Positions 7,224 through 40,534 of a DNA stretch of 64,000 nt are shown here, piece by piece (the first letter of the stretch is position 1; the number at the start of each line of letters is the position of its first letter). Below the pieces are notes generated by a model. It did not search any database. It worked only from the letters and a program-made list of their open reading frames with translations, and was not told the DNA's origin. A program made the position numbers and the translations under genes. The DNA is from an uncultured Bacteroidales bacterium (GTDB lineage: Bacteria > Bacteroidota > Bacteroidia > Bacteroidales > Muribaculaceae). The stretch spans positions 65,440-129,439 of the forward strand of contig CATZQR010000003.1 of the NCBI GenBank assembly GCA_958423255.1, in the 5' to 3' direction.

Positions 7224-8465
7224 ATGCATCGCCTTCTCTCATACCTGCTCTTTCTGATCTGGCTTCCCGCCGCGGCCCTCACAACCAAAGATATAGACAA
7301 CGTACACGTTGCCGACCGCACGCGCTTCGTAAGCGATATGGCCGGCGCCATGAGCGCGCCTGCGCGCGCCCGGGCCGACTCCCTGCTCCAGTCGATATGG
7401 CGCCAGACCTCGGCCGAGCCGGTTGTGGTAATCGTCCCCTCGCTCGACGGCGAGGATATCGACGACTTCGCCACTGAGTTATTCTCCGACTGGGGAATCG
7501 GCAAGGACGACCGCGATAACGGCGTGCTGATGCTAATCTCCATCGGCGACCGGAAGGCGGTGATTCGCACCGGTTACGGCACCGAGGGTATATTGCCCGA
7601 CGTGGTCTGCGGCCGCATTATCCGCAATGAGATGGCCCAGCGCTTCCGCGAGGACGACTACGACGGCGGTATTCTCGCCTCCCTGCAGACCATGCAGGCG
7701 GCAATGACCTCCGACGAGGCCCGCGCCGAACTGATGTCCGACAAAGCCAACGACGCCACGGCCGACGAGTTCGACGCCGACGAGGCGTTCGACATCTACT
7801 GGAAGATATGTGTGGCGCTCGGCATGCTTGGGCTTCTTGCCGTAATTATCGCCTATCTCGGCGTGCGCAGGCTCCCGACTTCCCGGGCCTACGCCACATT
7901 CGAGAACACTCGCCTGGGGCTGCTCGTGGCCTCTTTCCTCTCGCTCGGCTGCCTCTTCCCGGCCTATTTTCTTATGCTGGCATTCCAGCGCCACATACGC
8001 CTCCACAAGCGGCTCTGCCCCAACTGCAACACTCGTATGCTGCGCGTCGACGAGGACAACGACAACGCCTATCTGACGGCCAGTCAGGACGCCGAGGAAC
8101 GTCTCGACTCCGTAGACTACGACGTATGGCTCTGCCCCGACTGCGGCGAGACCGACATCATCCCCTACGTGAACCCCAAGAAAAACTATACGGAGTGCCC
8201 CTCCTGCCATGCGCGGGCATGCACCCTCGTAAACCGCCGCACGATTCTGGCGCCCACCACCCGCCGCGAGGGGCGTGGCATCGAGGAATACGTATGCCTC
8301 AACTGCCGCAGGCGCTACGAGAAGCCCTACACCATCGCCAAAGAGGCAGTAGCCCCGATAATCATCGGCGGAGGAGGCTTCGGCAGCGGAGGCGGAGGCG
8401 GATTCAGCGGCGGCTCCTTCGGCGGAGGCATGACCGGCGGCGGTGGCGCCTCCGGCGGCTGGTAA
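7224..8465 (+). CDS. TPM (TLP18.3/Psb32/MOLO-1) domain membrane protein with Cys4 zinc ribbon and Gly-rich tail
   Basis: It has a signal peptide, then a TPM phosphatase-like domain, then two TM helices. A CxxC...CxxC...CxxC...CxxC region follows, ending in a GGGGFGSGGGGGFSGG...GGW tail. Confidence 0.7.
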   Translation: MHRLLSYLLFLIWLPAAALTTKDIDNVHVADRTRFVSDMAGAMSAPARARADSLLQSIWRQTSAEPVVVIVPSLDGEDIDDFATELFSDWGIGKDDRDNGVLMLISIGDRKAVIRTGYGTEGILPDVVCGRIIRNEMAQRFREDDYDGGILASLQTMQAAMTSDEARAELMSDKANDATADEFDADEAFDIYWKICVALGMLGLLAVIIAYLGVRRLPTSRAYATFENTRLGLLVASFLSLGCLFPAYFLMLAFQRHIRLHKRLCPNCNTRMLRVDEDNDNAYLTASQDAEERLDSVDYDVWLCPDCGETDIIPYVNPKKNYTECPSCHARACTLVNRRTILAPTTRREGRGIEEYVCLNCRRRYEKPYTIAKEAVAPIIIGGGGFGSGGGGGFSGGSFGGGMTGGGGASGGW

Positions 8466-8953
8466 TCCCGCTTTATCAATCAGAGTATTTGTAGTAGAAT
8501 AGTATGGAAATACGCCGACGTGTAGATATTGTTCAGTAGAGGCCGGAGGAGGTTCATCCCTTCCACGCGATTGCGTGCATTGTAGGAATGTATGCTGCTA
8601 TCCCAGGAAATACTTGCCATAAACGTTGAGCAACTCTCTGAAACTTCGGAAGGAATGACTGGATTTATTGCTTTTATAAAAAAGTGTCCACCATTTTGGC
8701 GTTTTTGATAAAATTAACTAATTTCGTCGCGATAACAATGGCACGTACAAGTCTATATGAGATTTTGTCTTGTCTGTGTTGTCAAAAAACAAATTTCTGG
8801 ACTCCACCATAATCTATACCTTCGCAACAGAAGCAAATAGAAGTTCCAATCTTTGTAAAAAAACGCGAACTATACAAAACAATCTTCATTCAGTATTCAA
8901 TTCATCCTGTATTCAATACGGCTATTGTAATTTAACTTTAAAATCTCATTATC

Positions 8954-10282
8954 ATGATTAAAATTCCAAGAACAGAACCATTGTTCGCAGCAATTCTTTT
9001 TATGGCTGCAGCCTGCTCAGACACACAAGAGGATATTGTTACACTGAGGTCAACAGCCATCCCTAACCATACGCAGAGTATTATCAGAACACCGAATGAG
9101 GCTTTGGGTATTGCAAACAAAGCCGTAGGGATGTTCACATCTCCTACCGAATCCCGAGCAGCCAATTTTTCAAAAAAAATTGATTATAACAAGGGGGTTA
9201 TTGTATGCGGCAGCGGAAAGCAGTCTCGTTCAGAAAAAGACACTTTGATGTACGCTGTGAACTACTGCGACAACCAAGGTTTTGTTCTTGTTTCGGCTGT
9301 TCGCTCTACTCCAGAAGTAATTGCATACGTACCAAATGGAACTTATGTGGATAGTATTGAAATTGAGAACCCTGGCTTCAAATTCTTCATAAATAAAGCC
9401 AATGAATACTTGGCAAATGAAAAAAATACATTGAGCATAGGAGAAGGAAATACTACTATAAAGCCATATCTTCCCATTTGGGCACCAATTTATAAAGAGT
9501 TCTCTGACACGACCATCACTGTTGATATTCCCAACCGCGTGCAAGTGTTTTGGGGGCAATCCGGAGCCGAAGGAGCAGAGTGCCCAAATCAAACATCCGG
9601 TTGCTCCATTACCGCTGCAGCAATGGCTATGACCTATTTTAAATATCCGGGGTCTATCACCTTGACTTACAAAGAAAATACCCCGGAGCTTATTCTAGAT
9701 TGGCAAAAAATGTGTAAACACAAAGATATGGATTCATATCACAGTGGTTATTACTATGATGATACATGCGATGCCGCAACACACGTTTCCATATCACAAT
9801 TATGCAGAGAATTAGGCAAAAGAGCTAATACCTTATACATTTATGATAATAACGGACGTGGTATTTCTCCTACATCGACTTCGAATTTAGTACAGGCACT
9901 TCGAAAGATTGGATATCGCGCATTTTCCGAAGAATATTCCTCGCAAAACGTAATTAATGCCTTACAAAATCAGAATTGCGTGCTATTAATGTGCGGGGTT
10001 GATGAAGCAAGAAATGTTGGCCATATGTGGGTCTGCGATGGTGTGAAAAGCAAAAAAATTCATCGCGTCAGCTACGAATCAAAAGATGGTGGAATGACAT
10101 GGCATCAATATTTTGAGAAGACCGAATATCTCACATACAACTACTATAAATGGGGTTGGAATTATTCTAATTGTGGATACTTTATAAGCGATTGTTTTGA
10201 CCCATCCAGTGCCATAGAATCACCAACCACTTCCAGAGCAAATTATAGTTCAAATGTATATTTTATAAAAATGATAAAATGA
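8954..10282 (+). CDS. C10 family cysteine peptidase (streptopain/SpeB-like) lipoprotein
   Basis: 442 aa with a lipoprotein signal (FMAAAC/SD). The catalytic-Cys context is WGQSGAEGAECPNQTSGCSITAAAMAMTYFKYP and the His context is GHMWVCDGV. The gene sits in a ~40% GC island. Confidence 0.7.
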   Translation: MIKIPRTEPLFAAILFMAAACSDTQEDIVTLRSTAIPNHTQSIIRTPNEALGIANKAVGMFTSPTESRAANFSKKIDYNKGVIVCGSGKQSRSEKDTLMYAVNYCDNQGFVLVSAVRSTPEVIAYVPNGTYVDSIEIENPGFKFFINKANEYLANEKNTLSIGEGNTTIKPYLPIWAPIYKEFSDTTITVDIPNRVQVFWGQSGAEGAECPNQTSGCSITAAAMAMTYFKYPGSITLTYKENTPELILDWQKMCKHKDMDSYHSGYYYDDTCDAATHVSISQLCRELGKRANTLYIYDNNGRGISPTSTSNLVQALRKIGYRAFSEEYSSQNVINALQNQNCVLLMCGVDEARNVGHMWVCDGVKSKKIHRVSYESKDGGMTWHQYFEKTEYLTYNYYKWGWNYSNCGYFISDCFDPSSAIESPTTSRANYSSNVYFIKMIK

Positions 10283-10902
10283 TGAAAAACATATTCAAAA
10301 TATTTCTCGGGATTGCGCTCGCGCTAAATTCTACGAGTTGCGAAGATGAAAAGAAGGATACGTGGTTGAACTCCATGGTGCCCTATAACATGATTATCGG
10401 GATTTTCGATGAAGATGGCAACAATTTATTGTCGGAAAGCGCGGAAGGGAACTGGCTATATGCCCCCATCTCCATCTCAATCAACGATTATCCCAAAAAT
10501 TTGGATTGGGAGTGCTTCCGGCCTCAGCAGGCGTGGCCATGGGTAAATATCGACCCCACTACAGGAGCTGAAACATCGGGCTTGGGCGAATGGGCGGGAA
10601 TCATACGCACTGACTGGAATACCCCCATTGCCCCAACGGAGGAAATGGTCGACAGCTACGCTATCTTGATTTCCGAACCATTGTTTCCAGATAAAAAAAA
10701 TGAGGTGTATTTGAATTTTCCTGAGTTAAATCAAGTGGTTCAAATAGAATTTGGCTCCTATCTGGCCGACAGGGAATCGCCCGACGGCAAAAAATACTCT
10801 TGCTACGTTAACGGCATAGGCAATCCCGTCGACGATTCAAATTATATAATTCCTGTTCGGATTGTGCTCCCTCATAGAGCCACACTGCCTCAAGGCGAAT
10901 AA
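10279..10902 (+). CDS. small lipoprotein, candidate cognate inhibitor of the C10 peptidase
   Basis: 207 aa with a lipoprotein signal (LNSTSC/ED). Its start overlaps the protease stop (ATGA), which indicates translational coupling. It shares the island's low GC. The inhibitor role is inferred only from context. Confidence 0.5.
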   Translation: MMKNIFKIFLGIALALNSTSCEDEKKDTWLNSMVPYNMIIGIFDEDGNNLLSESAEGNWLYAPISISINDYPKNLDWECFRPQQAWPWVNIDPTTGAETSGLGEWAGIIRTDWNTPIAPTEEMVDSYAILISEPLFPDKKNEVYLNFPELNQVVQIEFGSYLADRESPDGKKYSCYVNGIGNPVDDSNYIIPVRIVLPHRATLPQGE

Positions 10903-11001
10903 CTGGATTTTTTAATATCCCCGCTTCTGCTACTGCTGCGGAATCTCCTTCATCCAGCACCTATGCTCGGGATATACAGACCGGCATTGCCGGTTGGATA
11001 T

Positions 11002-29196: not shown

Positions 29197-29237
29197 TTTT
29201 CGGACAACGGCGGATGCCCCAGGGTGCATCCCTACAA
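29197..29237 (+). promoter_or_regulatory. leader hairpin motif TTTCGGACAAC...GGATGC-N-GGGTGCATCCCTACAA (copy 1)
   Basis: The 16-mer GGGTGCATCCCTACAA and the preceding TTTCGG(N)CAAC recur at 54371-54416. A GGATGC/GCATCC hairpin is present. Confidence 0.3.
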
Positions 29238-29280: not shown

Positions 29281-29402
29281 CTGACCGACTGGACAACTGA
29301 AAAACAAGCATCAAGTTGACCGACCAACTGAGAAATAAACTTCAAGTTGACTGACCAGTGAGAAACAGGTATGAAGTTGACTGACTAACCGAGAAAATAA
29401 AC
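29281..29402 (+). repeat. four tandem ~30-bp imperfect direct repeats (core AAGTTGACYGACYAACYGAGAAA)
   Basis: Repeat units start at 29281, 29311, 29341 and 29371. The array ends 34 bp before the efflux adaptor ATG. Confidence 0.6.
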
Positions 29403-29435: not shown

Positions 29436-30632
29436 ATGATGAATTGCAAATTGCATTCGCTGGCCGCTTTCGCAGTGGTTTCCGCGACTTTCCTCACTTT
29501 CACATCGTGCGGCAAAAAAGACGCCCAGCAGATGGCCGGGGCCGGTGCGGCTCCCCAAATCGGCGTAATGACCGTAGAGCAGGGCGCTTCCGACCTCAAC
29601 AGCGCCTATTCGGCCACCATCAAGGGTAAGACAGACATCGAGGTACGCCCGCTGGTATCGGGTTTCATCACAAAAGTACATGTTGACGAGGGTCAGCGCG
29701 TGAGCAAGGGTCAGACACTCTTCACGCTCGACCAGGTGCAGTATCAGGCTGCAGTGGAGCAGGCCCAGGCGGCCGTTGCCTCTGCAAAGACCGCTCTTGA
29801 AAGCGCCAAGCTGACGGCTGCCAACAAGCAGCGCCTTTTCGACAAAAATATAATCAGCGAATATGAGAACCAGCTGGCCAAGAACCAGCTCGCGCAGGCC
29901 GAGGCCTCGCTGAGCCAGGCTCAGGCGGCTCTCGTAACAGCCCGCAAGAATCTGAGCTACACGGTTGTTACCGCTCCCTCCGACGGCTTCGTAGGCTCGA
30001 TTCCCAACCGCGAGGGCTCGCTCGCATCGCCCTCGATGGTAACGCCTCTCACCACCGTGAGCGACAACAGCGACGTGTACGCCTACTTCTCGCTTAACGA
30101 AAAGGACATTCTGGAAATGACCGACGGCGGCAAGATCGCGCTTAACACTGCCATCGCCCAGATGCCCGCAGTGCAGCTCCAGCTTTCCGACGGCACGATT
30201 TATCCCGAGGCCGGCAAAGTAGCCACCGTAAGCGGCGTAATCGACAACTCGACCGGCGCCGCCAACGTGCGTGCCCGCTTCAAGAACATCAACGGAATGC
30301 TCCGCAGCGGCTCCACGGGCATGATTCTGATTCCCAATCATAAGGAAAACGTAATCCTCGTGCCTCAGAAGGCTACGTTCGAGGTTCAGGACCGTCGGTT
30401 CGTATATGTGGTCAACGATTCGAACAAAACCGTCAGCACGGCCATCACCATTGCTCCAGAGAACGACGGCAAGCAGTTTATCGTTACCGGCGGCCTCGAG
30501 CCGGGTCAGCGCGTGGTTGTAGAGGGCGTAGGCACCAAGGTGCGCGACAACATGGAGATCGCTCCCGTCGACGCAGCCCAGGCAGCAGCTGCAGCGGCCG
30601 CACAGGGCCAGCAGCCCCAGCAGGGAAAGTAA
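29436..30632 (+). CDS. RND efflux periplasmic adaptor subunit (membrane fusion protein, AcrA/MexA family)
   Basis: 398 aa with a lipoprotein signal (TFTSC/GKK). It has the biotinyl-lipoyl, coiled-coil and beta-barrel domains. Confidence 0.9.
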   Translation: MMNCKLHSLAAFAVVSATFLTFTSCGKKDAQQMAGAGAAPQIGVMTVEQGASDLNSAYSATIKGKTDIEVRPLVSGFITKVHVDEGQRVSKGQTLFTLDQVQYQAAVEQAQAAVASAKTALESAKLTAANKQRLFDKNIISEYENQLAKNQLAQAEASLSQAQAALVTARKNLSYTVVTAPSDGFVGSIPNREGSLASPSMVTPLTTVSDNSDVYAYFSLNEKDILEMTDGGKIALNTAIAQMPAVQLQLSDGTIYPEAGKVATVSGVIDNSTGAANVRARFKNINGMLRSGSTGMILIPNHKENVILVPQKATFEVQDRRFVYVVNDSNKTVSTAITIAPENDGKQFIVTGGLEPGQRVVVEGVGTKVRDNMEIAPVDAAQAAAAAAAQGQQPQQGK

Positions 30633-35548: not shown

Positions 35549-35622
35549 ATGTAGGGACATGCCTTCGGCATGTATAATTCGCTGATAAACAACTGATACA
35601 TCGCACAGCGATGTCCCTACAT
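35549..35622 (+). other. structured intergenic element: 12-bp perfect inverted repeat ATGTAGGGACAT/ATGTCCCTACAT enclosing mutually exclusive sub-hairpins
   Basis: The sub-hairpins are CATGCC-ttc-GGCATG and ACATCGC-aca-GCGATGT, and each overlaps one arm of the long inverted repeat. The element lies between the OMF stop and lpxA. Confidence 0.35.
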
Positions 35623-38974: not shown

Positions 38975-39730
38975 TTATTCGCAGGCGGCCAGGAGGGCCG
39001 GGAGAGCCCGGGCGAAGGCCGGCATGGAGGGGAAAACGATGTCGGAACCGGCCTGCCACATCTCGCGCTCGGGAATAGGGCCGGTGGTGACGGCCACGGC
39101 AAAGGCACGGGCGTCGGAGGCCGAACGGACGCCCAGAGGGGCATTTTCCACAGCGATGCACTGCCATGGCTCGGCCTTGGCAAGCGCCATCCCCTTGAGG
39201 TAGGGCTCCGGATGGGGCTTGCAATGGGTTACGTCGGCCGAAGTGATGCGCAGACTTTCGGAGAAACCTCCGGGGAAATCGGCGGCGAGGCGCTCGAGGT
39301 TGGAGTGCTGCCCCGAGCCGGTTACGAGCACACGGGCAATGCCCCGCTCCATAAGCGTACGCACCATCTGCTGCGCGCCATCCATTACCTCCGGACGCGG
39401 AAACTCATTGAAATAACCCGACTTCCGGGCATAAAGTTCACGCTTCTCGGTGTCGGTGGCCTCACGACCGAAAGTGCGCAGAAAGAGACGATTGATGGTC
39501 TCGGCGCCGGTCATCCCCTCGTAGAGGTAGAACTCCTCGCGGGAACATGGGATGCCGAGTTCGGTAGCCATACGGTGCCACGAGGCGGTGTGGAGGCCCA
39601 TTGAGTCGAGCAGGGTGCCGTCCATATCGATAAGCGCGGCGCGCGGCGAGAGCCCGGCGAAACCGGTACGCTCACGGTAGCGTGCGAGCGCGGCGGCAAT
39701 CTGAGAATCTATATTAAAGTAACTGTTCAA
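38975..39730 (-). CDS. HAD-superfamily hydrolase (beta-phosphoglucomutase-like subfamily IA)
   Basis: It has motif I (IDMDGTL) and the later HAD motifs. The annotated start is a TTG lying inside the MITE-like repeat, so the true N-terminus is uncertain. Confidence 0.7.
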   Translation of the reverse strand: MNSYFNIDSQIAAALARYRERTGFAGLSPRAALIDMDGTLLDSMGLHTASWHRMATELGIPCSREEFYLYEGMTGAETINRLFLRTFGREATDTEKRELYARKSGYFNEFPRPEVMDGAQQMVRTLMERGIARVLVTGSGQHSNLERLAADFPGGFSESLRITSADVTHCKPHPEPYLKGMALAKAEPWQCIAVENAPLGVRSASDARAFAVAVTTGPIPEREMWQAGSDIVFPSMPAFARALPALLAACE

Positions 39731-39900
39731 AATTATTTATATTTTCCTGATCTAATTATTTCAACATTTCCGCGGTAAAATTTTCGCATCTTTTCCTCTC
39801 TTCATCAGTCGTGTAGACATCTACACTCCTTCTTCATCGAGAAAAATCTCCTGAAAATTTTCCTCCCGGAAATATTAAAATAATTTCGACCAGTTACTTA
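39717..39900. repeat. MITE-like element copy A (~23-bp terminal inverted repeats TAAGTAACyGkTC..AATTATTT), 184 bp with a ~65-bp internal insertion relative to copy B
   Basis: It aligns along its length with 53560-53679. The TIRs are readable directly. It has no coding capacity. Confidence 0.6.
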
Positions 39901-39946
39901 TCCATATTCATTGTTCCAAAATTTTTCCCGGTGCGGGAAGAGGCTT

Positions 39947-40534
39947 TCAGCCGGCGTTGTAGTGTCCGTTTTTGATACGATAGAGCGTCTCCTTGCTCAG
40001 CCCGAGGAAGGAGGCGATCTGGGTTGTGGAGGCGCACTCCGTAAGTCGCGGGAAACGGCTGAGCGCCCATGCATAGCGCTCGGAGGCGCTGAGTGTCTGC
40101 ATTACGTCGACGCGCTCCTCAAGAAAATCGGTATAGTGCAGCAGAGCCGTATTGAGGAAGAGCAGACCCTCGTTGGGGTCGACGGCGCCGCTCTCCTCAA
40201 GCTGATCGCGCACGGGCTGCTGAGGGATGAAAATCAGGGTGGATGGTTCGAGAAACTGCACGGCGAGGGTGTCGGCATAACGCCGCGATATGTTGCGCGG
40301 CACCACGGCAAACTGGTCGGCGAAAGCGAAGGAGATGGTGTGCTCGCGGCCACGACGGGTGTAGTACAGACGTACGGCGCCGCTGACGATATAGAAAGCG
40401 TATGCCGAGAGCATCTGCGAACTCTGGATAATGTGGCCTTTTGGGAAACGCTCCTGGCTCATCATGGAGCGTAGACAGCGCTCTACTTCCGGCTCCAGCT
40501 TGGCGAATTTTCGGATATGGTCGATAGGATGCAT
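39947..40534 (-). CDS. Crp/Fnr family transcriptional regulator
   Basis: 195 aa with an N-terminal cNMP-binding beta-roll and a C-terminal HTH (TQIASFLGLSKETLYRI). Confidence 0.85.
   Translation of the reverse strand: MHPIDHIRKFAKLEPEVERCLRSMMSQERFPKGHIIQSSQMLSAYAFYIVSGAVRLYYTRRGREHTISFAFADQFAVVPRNISRRYADTLAVQFLEPSTLIFIPQQPVRDQLEESGAVDPNEGLLFLNTALLHYTDFLEERVDVMQTLSASERYAWALSRFPRLTECASTTQIASFLGLSKETLYRIKNGHYNAG

Follow-up and report, generated by a model that had tools for sequence, protein, structure and literature searches.

In Streptococcus pneumoniae, the RUP element is a non-coding repeat of ~107 bp whose terminal repeats resemble those of an IS630-family insertion sequence (IS630-Spn1); its target is TA, some hundred copies occupy intergenic positions, and mobilization in trans is presumed (PMC2229807). 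The Correia elements of Neisseria (also called NEMIS or CREE) have terminal repeats of ~24 bp with TA termini and fall into classes of 107 and 155 bp; their transcripts form long hairpins, and neighboring genes are affected by putative outward promoters within them (PMC2229807). Elements of the IS630 family target TA, which is duplicated on insertion; now and then the duplication is AA/TT or incomplete, as described for ISY100 (PMC2170065). In Bacteroides, outward promoters carried by IS1186, IS1187, IS4351, and others activate cfiA, nim, and related genes, and the -7 promoter consensus of Bacteroides is TAnnTTTG (quoted in PMC9330008).

Here we consider a repeat family that was met as two copies, A and B, in a single stretch of DNA, the 64,000 nucleotides of an uncultured bacterium of the Muribaculaceae that we call the window. 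Muribaculaceae rank with the dominant bacteria of the mouse gut and inhabit the human gut too, and to our knowledge their mobile DNA has barely been described. A literature search for a MITE or IS630 element in Muribaculaceae or Bacteroidales found no publication, and none describing the present family. The family is genuine and previously undescribed in the literature that we found, but the kind of element is already known. We read both segments as copies of a non-autonomous MITE of the IS630/Tc1-mariner type, which likely persist in an orientation compatible with expression of the downstream gene, and we would put the probability of this reading at about 0.85.

A first-pass annotation of the window had reported two related copies with inverted-repeat ends, and both lie where it placed them (Table 1). 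They can be aligned along their entire length except for ~65 extra central bases in copy A (repeat families D12 and D14, pair I1). The core of copy A (AGTAAC..GTTACT) spans 39718-39898, flanked by AA (39716-17) and TA (39899-900), and that of copy B spans 53562-53677, flanked by TA on both sides (53560-61 and 53678-79). A 22-nt end pattern, AAGTAACNGNTCNNAATTATTT, was built from the ends and scanned over the 64-kb window and 100 shuffles of it. Its four matches in the window are exactly the four ends, with none expected by chance and none in any of the 100 shuffles. The terminal inverted repeats are ~24 nt long with two fixed mismatches (TGTTCAA versus TGGTCGA), and imperfect complementarity between the ends extends to ~36 nt (pair I1, 81%). 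Ends of the form TAAGTAACTG(T/G)TC(A/G)AAATTATTTT, 24 nt long, are found at all four window ends and across the family. The description of the copies as non-coding and palindromic holds as well: neither contains an ORF of 40 amino acids or more, and both fold into long hairpins better than shuffled sequences do (z = -2.9 for copy B and -5.1 for copy A). Both segments are AT-rich islands in a window of ~59% G+C. As a separate matter, window positions 8000-11000 are low in G+C (0.41-0.49, versus ~0.59 elsewhere) and are possibly acquired DNA.

Table 1. Positions of the two MITE copies, their parts, the affected HAD gene, and the copies of the related insertion sequence (IS). Coordinates refer to the window unless a contig is named.
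Feature	Location	Strand	Remarks
MITE copy A, long form	39716..39900	+	185 bp including flanking AA and TA; subfamily II
Copy A left terminal repeat, AAAGTAACTGTTCAAAATTATTT	39716..39739	+	IRR-like end; flank AA, not TA; identical to IS IRR
Copy A right terminal repeat, TAAGTAACTGGTCGAAATTATTTT (- strand)	39877..39900	-	With flanking TA
Central module, long forms only	39786..39850 (limits approximate)	+	
Outward-reading TAATTTTG in copy A	39728..39735	-	12 nt from left tip; fits Bacteroides -7 consensus TAnnTTTG
MITE copy B, short form	53560..53679	+	120 bp including both flanking TA; subfamily II arms, no central module
Copy B left terminal repeat, TAAGTAACTGTTCAAAATTATTTT	53560..53583	+	With flanking TA
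Copy B right terminal repeat, TAAGTAACCGGTCGTAATTATTTT (- strand)	53656..53679	-	With flanking TA
HAD-family hydrolase ORF	38975..39730	-	5' end runs into MITE (MNSYF/NIDSQ...); relatives start MNMDNKNIDSQ
Stranded original HAD start, ATGAATATGGA (- strand)	39901..39911	-	From alignment with empty sites in L120 and L121
IS copy	L075 5926-7050		Flanked by TA
IS copy	L123 729-1854		Apparently intact; 305-aa ORF; NF033545 above cut-off; flanked by TA
IS copy	L122 593-3379		Interrupted by IS3-type element; flanked by TA
IS copy	L138 1-1126		Contig is exactly one IS; no flanks

Beyond the window, species-representative genomes hold at least 109 matching stretches. Nearly all belong to Muribaculaceae, whose entries frequently bear the name 'Porphyromonadaceae' or 'Bacteroidales', and many share a genome with others. 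A cultured isolate, Muribaculaceae bacterium Isolate-013 (SCEJ01), is among the carriers, with copies in L043 and L059. At least 117 further stretches came from a metagenome collection, human-gut assemblies included. A profile built from the first pairs yielded 107 full elements among the matches listed, and clustering by 200 nt of flanking sequence resolved these into 94 distinct insertion sites, 3 of which overlap a long ORF. The sizes of the 107 listed elements peak at 183-186 bp, with minorities at 116-121 and 92-94 bp. Three sequence subfamilies emerge when 72 long copies are aligned. Both window copies belong to subfamily II, with whose members copy A clusters in the family alignment; in the nhmmer search, copy A scores E = 3e-48.

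The central module is conserved across all three subfamilies, the internal junctions of the short forms are heterogeneous, and copy B is the sole short form of subfamily II in the sample. Because the junctions differ and the module is kept in every subfamily, copy B is to be regarded as an internal-deletion derivative. On this comparison, copy A is the full 183-bp form and carries no insertion, and copy B is an internally deleted member of the same subfamily; the ~65-bp insertion previously attributed to copy A is instead a deletion in copy B. Minimal derivatives also occur, as 37-bp units consisting of two terminal repeats only and as 92-94-bp forms (L078 3155-3191; L039 4500-4536; L135, L036, L161, and L185). 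Within the module lies a hairpin, GTGTAGACATCTACAC (39811-39826 in copy A; also written GTGTAGCTCGCTACAC), followed by TCCTTCTTCA; it is 94% paired over 71 copies, with both sides changed at three of six pairs. Small ORFs of 10 and 14 codons, read from right to left in the module, were considered as possible coding sequences. They were rejected by inspection of the alignment rather than by a formal test, because substitutions in them are mostly non-synonymous and they are absent from the short forms.

The mobility of the element is demonstrated by its presence and absence in relatives with the same gene order. At the crp-HAD locus, contigs of the window's own species provide no empty site for copy A because all assemblies carry it. 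It is missing from the orthologous site in two relatives, L120 and L121, which were reached by way of their HAD homologues (96% and 86% identical) and in which the crp-HAD spacer is merely ~30 bp. The empty site of L120 reads ATGAATATGGA-TA-ATAAAAATATTGATTC, versus ATGAATATGGA-TA[AGTAAC...GTTACT]TT-AATATAGATTC in the window. This is not a clean textbook insertion: the left junction is AA instead of TA, and ~5 nt differ or are missing relative to the empty sites. The AA/TT exceptions recorded for ISY100 resemble this odd junction (PMC2170065). For copy B, an exact-flank search of the metagenome contigs for an empty site in the same species gave no match. It is missing at the same site in L124-L126, whose upstream protein is ~80% identical. 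There the site reads ...CCAGGAGAGGA-TT-CACGAAAATCAC (in short, ...GAGAGGA-TT-), and in the window it reads ...CCAGGGGAGAA-TA[element]TA-CACGAAAATCAC (in short, ...GGGAGAA-TA). Comparison with the empty sites of copies A and B thus shows that an occupied site consists of the element plus 2 nt, TA. More generally, TA stands at both flanks in 80 of the 94 listed sites, within a wider target of symmetric form, (A/T)TA(T/A).

Two further observations concern sites of insertion. Homologous spacers have been hit independently in different genomes, by the long form in one and the short form in the other, in opposite orientation and at different positions (L214 9930-10114 versus L107 1137-1255; L217 787-971 versus L173 1128-1243). 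In one contig of the window's species (L111 4635-6076), copy A breaks off at model position 29 and is followed by a DDE_Tnp_1/DUF4372 transposase, and HTH and AbiEii genes stand in place of the HAD gene, a second rearrangement at the same spot.

The family also has a relative that encodes a transposase. A lone match to the MITE end in contig L075 delimits a 1125-bp element with a DDE_3 ORF, and further copies were found on the contigs of transposase homologues, which are named 'IS630 family transposase' (Table 1). The transposase matches DDE_3 (PF13358) at 2.4e-27 and NF033545 (IS630) at 101.6 and 143 bits, against a cut-off of 100. The IS is 1126 bp long, and its IRR, TAAGTAACTGTTCAAAATTATTTTAT, is identical to the left end of the MITE over 27 nt; its IRL, TAAGTGAGTAATCAAATTTATTTA, agrees with the MITE ends at just 18 of 24 positions. 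Because of this limited agreement, and because the MITE is unrelated to the IS past 27 nt, it is not a simple deletion derivative of the IS. Its reading frames orfA and orfB overlap at CGT TTT TTA, a classical -1 slippery heptamer, and are predicted to be joined by a programmed -1 frameshift at T TTT TTA. That L138 contains the IS and nothing else is as expected for a multi-copy repeat. The 64-kb window contains no IS630 transposase, and a search of a plasmid collection with the IS gave a sole match, 258 bp at 75% identity, to an HTH gene.

The first-pass annotation had suspected a non-autonomous transposable element and had proposed to count copies, to look for target-site duplications, and to look for an autonomous IS with matching terminal repeats. 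The at least 94 sites, the 2-bp TA duplication seen against empty sites in relatives, and an IS630-family element with one end identical to that of the MITE bear this suspicion out. We propose that the ~24-nt terminal inverted repeats are putative binding sites for the transposase of the related IS, which would mobilize the MITE in trans, excising the gene-less element and pasting it into a TA dinucleotide that would thereby be duplicated. Copies are retained nearly exclusively in short spacers right before a start codon, their IRR-like end toward the gene. Only this orientation would be compatible with expression of that gene, either through a promoter in the left arm or through one-way read-through. 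Copy A, which parted the HAD gene from its start codons, would on this proposal have been retained in the permissive orientation.

The bias in orientation and position is pronounced. Among listed sites at which the flanking genes are co-directional, the left, IRR-like end points toward the downstream start in 46 of 52 (binomial p = 1e-8), and the ratio of left to right is similar in subfamily I (17:2), subfamily II (11:1), subfamily III (8:1), and the short forms (10:2). Between the left tip and the first ATG of the gene that it faces, the median distance is 13.5 nt; where the right end faces the start, the median is 134 nt, and the distance usually exceeds 100 nt. In divergent spacers, the end adjoining the gene is again the left one, and at ten listed sites the flanking TA even contributes the A of the ATG of genuine-looking N termini (e.g. 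MKLLEGKTAVVTGAA). Because the element stands almost always just upstream of a start and in fixed orientation, it probably affects expression of the neighboring gene. Since the target itself is symmetric, we attribute the orientation rule to survival of those insertions that spare downstream expression, that is, to probable selection for the expression-compatible orientation.

Several features of the sequence bear on what could make one orientation compatible. Read outward, the left end is ...TATAAAATAATTTTGAACAGTTACTTA, in which TAATTTTG agrees with the Bacteroides -7 consensus. Of the 94 listed copies, 70 have an outward TAnnTTTG at 10-12 nt (12 in most) from the left tip; at the right end, TAATTTCG is the usual sequence. 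A Bacteroidetes promoter of canonical form, with its -33 element at the proper spacing, was considered and rejected: in none of the 94 listed copies does a TTTG or TTG lie 17-23 nt before the -7 motif, the nearest TTG being 26 nt upstream. Moreover, subfamily III has TAATTTTA at its left end and a perfect TAATTTTG at its right and still shows the bias, and thus the -7 box in the terminal repeat is not the sole determinant of orientation. A scan for sigma-70-type promoters detects TTGAAA-18-TAAAAT directed outward from the left arm, and the central hairpin with the TCCTTCTTCA that follows it scores as a weak terminator in the left-to-right direction only. Neither of these alone explains the rule, because the hexamer is unconserved in subfamily III and the short forms, which lack the hairpin, are equally biased. 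Two candidate causes are suggested by these features: the left arm may supply an outward promoter, or the element may permit read-through only from right to left.

The two window copies illustrate the two orientations. Copy A, in the majority configuration, has its right end toward the stop of a crp-like gene (39947-40534, - strand) and its left end (the 39716 side) against the coding sequence of the HAD-family hydrolase ORF. Measured against the empty sites of the relatives, its position falls within the first HAD codons. The insertion cuts ATG AAT ATG GAT off from the ORF, and the stranded start now reads ATG AAT ATG GAT AAG TAA. The only canonical in-frame start left to the ORF, and the one used by gene callers, is a TTG at 39728-39730 that lies inside the MITE end and consists of the last three bases of TAATTTTG. 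A canonical TA junction would put this TTG out of the HAD frame, and a secondary change at the left junction may have restored it. The gene shows no sign of decay, since dN/dS is 0.175 against a relative without the insertion and 0.168 between two relatives without it. The earlier description of both copies as intergenic thus needs correction for copy A, which is not purely so: rather than sitting next to accessory genes, it disrupts the start of a gene that belongs to the conserved crp-HAD-DHQ synthase block.

Copy B has the minority orientation, its left end pointing toward the stop of an upstream gene of 1021 amino acids. It lies 105 nt past this gene and its hairpin, and its right end is 194 nt before a cobalamin riboswitch; this distance makes it probably neutral. 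The riboswitch (53873-54190, 54.6 bits) stands ahead of a 2236-aa ORF, whose homologues have Beta_helix/NosD and DUF4465 domains, and the arrangement is kept in relatives without the MITE. Between the riboswitch and the real start of this ORF lies one copy of a second small palindromic repeat, TGTAGGGATGCACC..GGTGCATCCCT(A/G)CA, found at 29212-29236 and 54386-54415, with a similar sequence at 35549-35622 (I17/I19). At 29298-29385, just before an ORF that starts near 29437, are three tandem units of ~30 nt, each ending in AAGTTGAC(C/T)GAC and spaced by 30-31 nt (D19), which could be putative repeated binding sites for a regulator.

The orientation rule could also arise during insertion, if the transposase targeted gene starts and inserted the element and its parent IS there in a fixed orientation. 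The IS copies conform to such targeting, the IRR lying 10-27 nt before a start codon in all three that have flanks (L075, L122, and L123). The ten sites at which the duplicated TA gives the A of the ATG point the same way, as does the bias of subfamily III, which persists though the perfect -7 box is at the other end. Against this, the symmetric target logo offers no cue for orientation, the two MITE ends differ at just 2 of 24 terminal positions, and characterized IS630-family transposition requires only the transposase and TA (PMC2170065). Moreover, the distance that gene-facing right ends keep from the start is what a survival filter would produce. We thus consider targeting unlikely as the source of the rule.

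A broader proposition, which we regard as tentative and somewhat doubtful, is that the family is a portable expression cassette for Muribaculaceae, or else that its IS630-type transposase prefers gene starts in an orientation-specific manner for which there is no precedent. Were the cassette reading true, the left arm would drive or permit transcription into the genes before which it has landed. Dozens of genes per genome would then have their expression start from MITE-derived 5' regions, including genes whose own start region has been destroyed, such as the HAD gene.

Invertons, promoter segments that are flipped by a site-specific recombinase, are common in Bacteroidales, and inverted repeats around an AT-rich segment of 70-140 bp near gene starts, with a -7-like motif and in a Bacteroidales genome, are what such a segment would look like. 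But here the entire unit, repeats included, is missing from orthologous sites with a 2-bp duplication, and its whole length is conserved at 94 unrelated listed sites. The crp-HAD locus has one orientation in all five full-length assemblies, and the sole opposite-orientation pairs in homologous spacers are separate insertions at different positions. Further, one end is identical to that of an IS630-family element. An inverton is thus very improbable.

Just as improbable is that the segments are a local duplication, a REP/BIME repeat with a RAYT (Y1) transposase, or a structured non-coding RNA gene: the palindromic structure, the folding better than shuffles, and the conserved inner hairpin with some compensatory changes would suit these, but a local duplication does not yield hundreds of copies in many species, the terminal inverted repeats, TA duplication, and DDE_3/IS630 partner are not features of REP/RAYT systems, and, as for an RNA gene, Rfam gives no match at the element (whole window at the gathering threshold, element at E <= 1), and the short forms without the inner hairpin are equally spread with the same orientation bias. 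The label 'REP-like' in the first-pass annotation is therefore to be dropped, and no result of the analysis speaks for its suggestion that the element marks recombination hotspots.

If the MITE does supply or gate transcription, as the preferred reading of selectively retained insertions would allow, gene regulation in Muribaculaceae would have been rewired repeatedly by one small element. On the practical side, the element explains many assembly breaks in metagenome-assembled genomes of Muribaculaceae: its ends recur at contig positions 30-90, and contigs stop right after the crp gene. It also offers a marker for strain typing.

The family can be compared with the systems described at the outset. 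Like the promoter-bearing IS of Bacteroides, the MITE is found just upstream of start codons and has a -7 motif of the TAnnTTTG type (PMC9330008); unlike the MITE, those are full-length IS of other families with mapped promoters, whereas the promoter considered here is predicted and has no -33 element. Correia elements are the closest counterpart in their TA termini, size classes, and putative promoters; an internal block sets their 107-bp class apart from that of 155 bp, as it does for the ~118- and 183-bp forms here. In Correia elements, however, there is no known parent IS and the block contains an IHF site, in contrast to the 6-bp hairpin of the Muribaculaceae family; the sequences are unrelated, and the host here uses Bacteroidetes-type promoters. 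IS630 and ISY100, of the Tc1/mariner superfamily, share with the partner IS the imperfect terminal repeats, the DDE_3/NF033545 transposase, and the TA flanks. They differ from the window copies in that the latter encode nothing, and both ends of the MITE resemble the IRR of the IS only. RUP belongs to another phylum, is unrelated in sequence, and tends to land in other IS elements, and the review that covers it mentions no orientation-locked placement directly 5' of start codons (PMC2229807). Because sequences and hosts are unrelated, the window element is a member of neither RUP nor the Correia elements. RUP is the nearest to it in mechanism, being likewise a non-coding element with a TA target and an IS630-type partner.
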